Shown piece after piece: positions 10,586 to 30,895 of a stretch of 64,000 nt of DNA. A model generated the notes under the pieces. It ran no database searches and was not told the DNA's origin. It worked only from the letters and a program-made list of their open reading frames with translations. Position 1 is the first letter of the stretch; the number at the start of each line of letters is the position of its first letter. The position numbers were made by a program, and so were the translations under genes. Source of the DNA: Octopus vulgaris (lineage: Eukaryota); the NCBI GenBank assembly GCA_951406725.2, contig OX597814.1, positions 39,246,001-39,310,000 of the forward strand, given 5' to 3'.

Positions 10586-10590
<5 letters not shown>

Positions 10591-10817
10591 TGCAGCGTGG
10601 AAGTTGTTTGTAAGCCATTTAAGAAACAAAAGCCGTTCGATTCACTTCAACATTTAAGTTGAAAATATTTTGACAAAGTAAACTTAAATGTTGAAGTGAA
10701 TCGAACGGCTTTTGTGTGTTTCTTAAATGGCTTACAAACACCTTCCACGCTGCAATTGTTTTCGTTCCAGCACACGATCTCAGATCAAATCACTTGCTAT
10801 GCGAGTACATCTCCGTA
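10586..10817. mobile_element. Fold-back element family F: inverted arm + forward arm + ~58 bp tail
   Basis: 10586-10660 is the near-perfect reverse complement of ~10681-10759; same family at 20347 and 30552. Confidence 0.8.
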
Positions 10818-14034: not shown

Positions 14035-14080
14035 AACACAACGTTTCGGCTGATATACCCTCCAGCCTTCATCAGGTGTC
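14035..14080 (-). ncRNA. Minimal type I hammerhead ribozyme motif, canonical core
   Basis: gacac-CTGATGA-A-ggctg(gagggtatat)cagcc-GAAA-C-GTT-gtgtt; core intact, palindromic AACGTT stem III (dimer type). Confidence 0.75.
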
Positions 14081-20346: not shown

Positions 20347-20859
20347 CAGCGTGGAAGGTGTTAATAAGCCATTTAAGAAACATACAAAATCCGTTAGATT
20401 CACTTCAACATTTAAGTTTAATTTCTCAAAATATATTCGTCGCTTGGAGACCGCGACCTATTCACTGACAAAATTCCGTGCTGCATCTGAGAAAGTAACT
20501 GTTAGTTCATGATATATATGTACGTATGTATGTATGTGTGTATGTATGCATGCATGTATGTATGTATGTATGTATGTATGTATGTATGTATGTATGTATG
20601 TATGTATGTGCGTATGTATGTATGTGCGTATGCATGTCTGCATGTCTATAGGCATGTATATATGTATTATGTCAGTATGTACGTATGTACATATGTATGT
20701 ATGTGTGTATTTACGGAAATGTGAAGGCGTGTCTGTGTGTGTGTACATGTGTATGTAGATGTGAATGTATGTTTATGTTCTGATATGTGTGTGTTCAAGT
20801 TGTATACATGATTGTTACTTTGTTGAAGATTGTATACACTCACATATACATCTATATAG

Positions 20860-20928
<69 letters not shown>

Positions 20929-21466
20929 TGTGTATACAACCTTCAACAAAGTACTAGTCATGTATACAACTTGAACAAACACATATCGGTACACAAACAT
21001 ACGTTCACATGTACATACACATGTACACACGCCAAAACACGTCTACACATTTACCTAAATACATACATAGATAAGTACATACGTAAATCCTCACATAGAT
21101 GCATACATAATACATGTGTATAGACATGCACACATGCATACGCATGTACACATATGCACACGCACATACATGTGCACACATACATACGCAAATACATACA
21201 TACATATATACATATATACATACATGCATACATACACATATACCATTAACTAACTGTTATTTTTCAGATGTTGCACGGAATTTTCAGTGAAGGGGTCTCG
21301 GTCTCGAAGTGACAAAATCATTTTGACAAATGAAATTTAAATGCTGAAGTGAATCTAACGGATTTTGAATGTTTCTTAAATGGCTTATAAACACCTTCCA
21401 CGCTGCAATTGTTTTCGTTCCAGCACACGATTTCAGATCGGGTCACTTGCTATGAAAGTGCATACC
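20347..21466. mobile_element. Fold-back element family F, ~1.06 kb imperfect palindrome + tail
   Basis: 20347-~20838 mirrors ~20930-21405 around a (TA)n centre, including the degenerate TATG/CATA portion; tail matches 10760-10817. Confidence 0.85.
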
Positions 21467-30551: not shown

Positions 30552-30895
30552 GCAGCATGGATGACATATTTTAGCCATGCGAAAACATACAGAGTGTTAA
30601 CTTCACTTAAAAATTTACCGTCTCTAATTTTTCATCAAACATTTCATAGCGCGAACTGCGGCCTGATCTCTGGAACGAGCACTCTCTCAAAATTACACTG
30701 AAACACTCTGTACACTTCTCAATGAACAGGTCGCATGTAATATGACGTATAGTTTTACACCGTATTACAACAGATGTTTAAGTGAAGCAAACAGTTTTGC
30801 GAGTTTTTAAAATGTTAACGTGTCTTCCACGCTGCAAAAGTTTCAGTTTCAGCACTAGGTCTCATATCAAGGTATTTGCCTCGCAATTAAAACTC
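30552..30895. mobile_element. Older, diverged member of fold-back family F
   Basis: gcagcatgga..cttcacttaaa mirrored by tttaagtgaag..tccacgctgc; tail cagcactaggtctcatatcaagg resembles the family F tail. Confidence 0.6.

Follow-up and report, generated by a model that had tools for sequence, protein, structure and literature searches.

Minimal hammerhead motifs have been described in the pseudo-LTRs of metazoan Penelope elements, where, as a rule, A9 is followed by an additional base and stem III is palindromic; these motifs cut poorly in vitro, and a stem III formed by two copies pairing through the palindrome has been proposed for them (available sections of Cervera and de la Pena 2014, PMC4209133). 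The cores presented there carry C3:G8 or a natural U3:A8. Natural U3:A8 hammerheads were also described by Perreault et al. 2011 (PMC3088659, available sections), and represent a compensatory change at the tertiary 3:8 pair that takes two transitions and keeps the pyrimidine-purine order. In the hammerhead of an Anolis Penelope element, either C3G or G8C alone abolishes cleavage while the double change partly restores it; cleavage of this element needs protein, and its insertion is independent of cleavage (available sections of Frangieh et al. 2024, PMC11167929).

The analysed window is a stretch of 64,000 nucleotides from Octopus vulgaris (contig OX597814.1), and it contains copies of a repeat, here called family F, that is found throughout the genome. 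Family F resembles the metazoan Penelope hammerheads of PMC4209133, as far as the available text describes them, in its location, the extra base between A9 and G10.1, the G10.1-C11.1 pair, the palindromic stem III, the open stem I, the thousands of solo truncated copies and the inverted pairs. It differs in its core, which is G3:C8. Like U3:A8, this is a natural compensatory change at 3:8, but it takes two transversions, flips the purine-pyrimidine order and places a C at the general-acid position. The same C3G/G8C swap has been engineered (PMC11167929; review PMC8495972; available sections of both), whereas in family F it occurs naturally, has become fixed and is found in young elements whose frames are open. 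Our literature search, which mostly did not reach subscription papers and so may have missed an earlier report, returned no natural G3:C8 hammerhead and 'G3-C8' only as a laboratory variant; within the literature searched, this core is thus known to us from laboratory mutants only. On balance we favour the reading that family F carries in its Penelope end repeat a minimal hammerhead of type I whose 3:8 pair is fixed as G3:C8 and which would likely cleave weakly after UUU. If this is correct, a third Watson-Crick state of the hammerhead 3:8 pair is found in nature, and whole families with thousands of copies escape descriptor searches.

The window copies and their parent element

Two arms flanking (TA)28 form a fold-back at 20347-21463 of the window, and 406 of 465 aligned bases are identical between them (Table 1). 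The preliminary description had proposed a fold-back family; the fold-back stands, and what had been missed is that an autonomous Penelope-like element has it as its pseudo-LTR. The region at 20347-21463 is a decayed copy of a 5'-truncated, inverted insertion of this retroelement. Its inverted arm is 73-85% identical to the sequence 3' of the ORF in a young element (L334), and longer copies extend upstream, across a 3' UTR rich in microsatellites, to a frame that ends in GIY-YIG. The four core 7-mers and the 17-mer that had been reported (the latter, at 10661-10677, comprising GAAA, the palindrome, UU and the 3' strand of stem I) were all found at the positions and on the strands given for them, and the stem II described for the best arm is perfectly paired. 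It had also been said that no single copy is intact, and indeed all four window copies are damaged: the second relic has no hammerhead fold, and a descriptor search of the window returned no G3:C8 hammerhead. The arms at 30664 and 30722 had been placed in the same family, an assignment that did not hold. They are relatives of far greater age than the young family F, with 67-78% identity to it and to an older family, S3; when the old window copy served as query in a DNA search, the matches were of 72-78% only, and no family of its own was defined for it. Elsewhere in the window, on the minus strand at 14080-14036, an unrelated repeat contains an intact, ordinary C3:G8 minimal hammerhead with position 3 at 14075, a 6-bp stem II, an extra A and an ACGT palindrome.

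Table 1 Positions of the family F features and their older relatives in the window
Feature	Position	Strand	Detail
Inverted arm	20347..20839	-	3' UTR end and pseudo-LTR of Penelope-like element
(TA)28	20870..20925		Fold-back centre
Forward arm	20926..21463	+	3' UTR with microsatellite-like sequence, pseudo-LTR, tail
Best hammerhead relic	20422..20472	-	Compared with family majority
Best relic, stem I 5' strand	20472-20466	-	
Best relic, core	20465-20459	-	GTGAATA; G3, C8>T
Best relic, extra G	20458	-	
Best relic, stem II	20457-20453 with 20443-20439	-	Perfect 5 bp, 9-nt loop
Best relic, GAA and mutated A15.1	20438-20435	-	A15.1>T
Best relic, U16.1	20430	-	
Best relic, U17	20429	-	
Best relic, predicted cut	20429/20428	-	
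Best relic, stem I 3' strand	20428-20422	-	One mismatch
Second, more decayed relic	21280..21330	+	G3, G8, G9, broken stem II, G12>A
Inferred ORF start (ATG 21380) and optional tail	21380..21463	+	
Second fold-back copy of family F	10586..10810	+	Forward arm truncated at G12
Old diverged relative	30715..30870	+	Core 30722-30728; A3, C8
Old diverged relative, inverted position	30560..30680	-	Core 30670-30664

A protein search led to young copies of the element, six of which were fetched (L334-L339, 95.5-99.2% identical, with frames of 713-1,025 aa). An intact G3:C8 motif lies approximately 1 kb behind the stop codon in all six, and within 10 kb in one of three older copies (L340-L342); one such intact copy is at L334:462-515. 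The 1,025-aa frame comprises a YVDD motif along with, at its C terminus, the GIY-YIG domain (PF01541, above cut-off, E=1.8e-5). Its assignment as a reverse transcriptase (RT) draws on homologues that bear the name of RT-domain proteins and contain PF00078; the Pfam RT family gave no direct match to the frame itself, and a search of solved structures with the ORF gave no match. A CX3CxxC linker precedes the endonuclease in L334 and L053. The element is likened, by features rather than by an RT tree, to the Neptune/Nematis type of EN+ Penelope elements (available sections of Craig et al. 2021, PMC8557442), with which it shares the RT, the C-terminal GIY-YIG, the intervening cysteines and the linker, and also (TA)n flanks, inverted 5'-truncated copies and an optional tail, of approximately 55 nt in family F vs 30-40 bp in that account. 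The best protein relative of the element bears the source label Octopus vulgaris, and a search of metagenome contigs returned no relative.

To look at copies independently of their core, we used a sample of 99 distinct copies, taken from 100 listed of 8,090 matches, on one contig, to an anchor approximately 65 nt downstream of the predicted cut. The 3' ends in this sample fall into two groups, with 45/99 ending at the anchor and 54/99 ending 53-62 nt further on, and a pseudo-LTR, an inverted 5'-truncated copy and an optional tail are all seen in the family F element. The hammerhead is located upstream of a putative ORF start that lies 92 nt downstream of the motif and was placed by its homology with the opening codons of a 1,312-aa frame in a sister family, S4. 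Coding constraint on G3 and C8 was considered and rejected, as in a young copy no open frame crosses the motif and reaches the ORF. The idea of one spliced 5' junction common to the copies is unsupported, with 16 different 4-mers in 33 copies. Just 5' of the motif, at 20478-20505 on the minus strand of the window, there is a splice-acceptor-like stretch (a CTAAC branch-point-like sequence, a pyrimidine run and AG), and 47 of the 99 copies start within a few bases of it. Many of the best matches to the window's subfamily are on contig C16, and an insertion among family F pieces, on the minus strand at L062:4194-5291, holds a frame of 366 aa that belongs to a different Penelope-like element.

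A very different reading would make the repeat a DNA element, of the fold-back or miniature inverted-repeat kind, whose resemblance to a hammerhead is due to chance. An inverted piece does lie within 480 nt of 62 of the 99 copies, by a loose criterion, and Rfam returned no hammerhead among 150 listed of 481 window matches, nor on an intact G3:C8 copy. However, Rfam also returned none on a sister copy with the ordinary C3:G8 core, so that its silence is uninformative here. The repeat directly continues RT/GIY-YIG frames, both stems recur around an ordinary core in its sister families, and published accounts of Penelope-like elements include tails and inverted 5'-truncated copies (PMC8557442, available sections). 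We regard this reading as extremely improbable, and consider it refuted by the young RT/GIY-YIG frames that carry the motif. The fold-back would instead arise from the insertion mechanism of the element itself, by 5' truncation and an inverted copy, with no DNA transposon involved.

The core of family F across the genome

An exact-pattern search of the genome returned 6,805 copies with G3 and C8 and no match to the reversed control pattern, as well as 434 copies with G3 and a base other than C8 and 284 with a base other than G3; reversed controls across these core-count searches gave 0-2 matches. Copies that combine G3/C8 with a perfect stem II and GAAAAT number 5,041 (control 0). Among 100 listed matches of the 284 non-G3 copies, C3:G8 is seen in two, and both belong to other families. 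The core-independent sample agrees: of its copies, 72 reach position 3, and 66 of these are G3:C8, none are C3:G8, and the remaining six are single other states at 3:8. The full descriptor is passed by 39 of the 68 copies that cover stem I (38 G:C and one T:G), compared to two matches in 30 shuffles of the window.

Beyond the swapped pair, the rest of the core has the sequence of a hammerhead. U4, G5, A6 and A9 are kept, such that only the standard C3...G8 core of the usual descriptor fails to match, and the anchor sample retains G12, A13, A14 and A15.1 in 78/82, 81/84, 83/84 and 82/84 copies, U16.1 in 85/86 and U17 in 86/86. Stems I and II, G10.1-C11.1 and the extra base after A9 are present. 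The common variants lie 5' of stem I, in loop II or downstream, or convert one stem I pair to a wobble. The consensus that had been reconstructed from damaged window copies is therefore the genome-wide majority and is intact in thousands of copies; this holds for G3/C8, for GAAA, for the paired stems I and II, for the 6-nt stem III palindrome and for the UUU site, and the hammerhead reading is not refuted on any of these points. In contigs from four sequencing runs with organism labels A-D, which drop rare variants and to which a likeness filter was applied, no alternative letter exceeds 3% at position 3 or 8. One of these runs, X4, shows ten A>G sites at L012:1480-1680 compared to two apiece in the remaining runs; this would fit A-to-I editing of fold-back transcripts, and species differences are possible too.

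Related families and the history of the swap

The state of the 3:8 pair differs by family, with G:C in F and S3, C:G in S2 and S4, and U:G in S1. Family S3 is older and is 80% identical to F at majority level. We see G3:C8 in 20 of its 30 copies and C8 in 28 of 30, though the query copy had C3; in S3 copies found by exact pattern, 7/11 have G3 and C7 and 8/11 have G3:C8. In the old family S1 (L274-L303), 27 of 30 copies show the wobble U3:G8; stem III has 2 bp and is not palindromic. C3:G8 is present in one of the two S2 copies seen. The young family S4 has 54% protein identity over 814 aa and frames up to 1,312 aa; in six of seven fetched copies (L343:6383-6434, L344-L348, L353) its hammerhead, which has a bulged stem I, combines C3:G8 with C9, and the seventh is changed at G5.

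Families S3 and F are identical at 12/12 core and 20/20 stem positions but at only 77/113 others. S3 was found with a pattern that fixes 15 positions, and when these are removed the comparison is 18/18 for core plus stems vs 76/112 elsewhere (p=0.003); the core alone, at 8/8, is not significant (p=0.10). The differences between the two families (N7, loop II, one stem I pair changed from U-A to G-C, and the palindrome shortened from 6 to 4 nt) are, as judged from sequence, of the kinds a hammerhead allows. A wider alignment of 22 copies from five families, picked by loose motif patterns that lean it towards the model and with related rows, has 85.7% of cells paired vs 80.1 in shuffles and 23-47% with slid partners. 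Changes on both sides are seen in 7 of 15 pairs, a level that 41 of 500 shuffles also reach, and the 3:8 column is GC in 14 copies, UG in four, CG in two and unpaired in two. Given how the rows were picked and that they are related, these pair counts are supporting evidence only; the covariation at 3:8 rests on one swap event. With C3:G8 as the general state, we take the swap to be derived; it probably arose once, from C3:G8, before the split of F and S3.

One could argue that the ribozyme died at the first change, that the second was chance, and that the motif has since been copied as a neutral passenger. That a single swap event is seen, that the motif was noticed for its compensatory look and that mismatched cores transpose are all compatible with such a history. 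We nonetheless find it improbable, as families differing at approximately one third of other positions have the same core and stems, and as changes within family F fall in loop II or outside the motif, or form a wobble.

Folding, cleavage and the role of the motif

For an intact young natural copy, stems I and II are predicted with pair probabilities of 0.71-1.0 (z=-3.0). The predicted minimum-energy fold of the monomer pairs G3 with U17, extending stem I, and the predicted lowest-energy dimer is not a double hammerhead. By analogy with C3:G8, positions 3 and 8 would form a tertiary pair. Cleavage sites with U17 are weak. We suggest that the swap may have been tolerated owing to U17 in place of C17; U17 is also present in S1, S3 and S4. 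A trap related to the mispairing of G3 and position 17 is discussed in PMC3884650 (available sections). On the favoured hammerhead reading, stem III would be too short to form alone and two motifs would pair through the AAUAUU palindrome. Cleavage after UUU would then be weak or slow, proceeding as a dimer or aided by the element's protein. Slow, assisted cleavage is what would be expected given that minimal Penelope hammerheads cut poorly in vitro and that the Anolis double mutant was only partly rescued.

Several observations bear on whether the element needs this cleavage. The predicted cut site is spanned by 86 of the 99 anchor-sample copies and none of the 99 starts at it, while 47 start 54-64 nt upstream, indicating that the templates were uncut. 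G3:G8 copies, which are predicted to be dead, number approximately 143, where the mirror transversion at position 3 would predict 28, a fivefold excess based on hand counts from 100 listed matches of each of the 434- and 284-match sets. They occur on several haplotypes, some of them beside ORF remnants (L084-L103, L062, L053). Such numbers and settings indicate that mismatched sources did transpose, and the U3:G8 of S1 and the C9 of S4 show that the core tolerates changes within this clade. Taken together, uncut templates, the G3:G8 excess and the U3:G8 and C9 families mean that selection on catalysis is at best weak or intermittent. The G3:G8 copies are not supported as a surviving intermediate of the swap, as S3 already has C8 and G8 is found on several F haplotypes.

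A purely structural role is thus a serious rival of the catalytic reading. Here the fold, of hammerhead descent, would still be selected, but for protein binding or for RNA folding near the start of reverse transcription, and G3:C8 would be kept or tolerated without meaningful cleavage. This would agree with the derivation of copies from uncut RNA, with the spread of G3:G8, U3:G8 and C9 cores, with the fact that F/S3 conservation is significant for core plus stems and not for the core alone, and with the Anolis element, for which the available sections of PMC11167929 describe catalytic mutants with no insertion effect and no reads ending at the cut. Against it, the core position that changes (to A, C or U) while the others stay is N7, which is the only free one in a catalytic hammerhead, and the outcome of the two transversions is exactly a restored Watson-Crick pair at 3:8. 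We consider a structural role possible but the less probable explanation. If the motif does cleave, mainly uncut RNA would be used in transposition, with the cut useful in the long term and unneeded for each jump.

A broader proposal can be drawn from the same sequences, namely an active G3:C8 lineage with C as the general acid, which made one crossing through a dead intermediate, has been selected for cleavage in several cephalopod species across both old and mobile Penelope families, and has gone unseen by CUGANGA-based censuses; we see this as evenly poised between right and wrong. Within one clade and one genome, C3:G8, U3:G8, G3:C8, G3:G8 and C9 cores, each with its copy number, form a natural series that bears on whether Penelope-like elements need hammerhead cutting.
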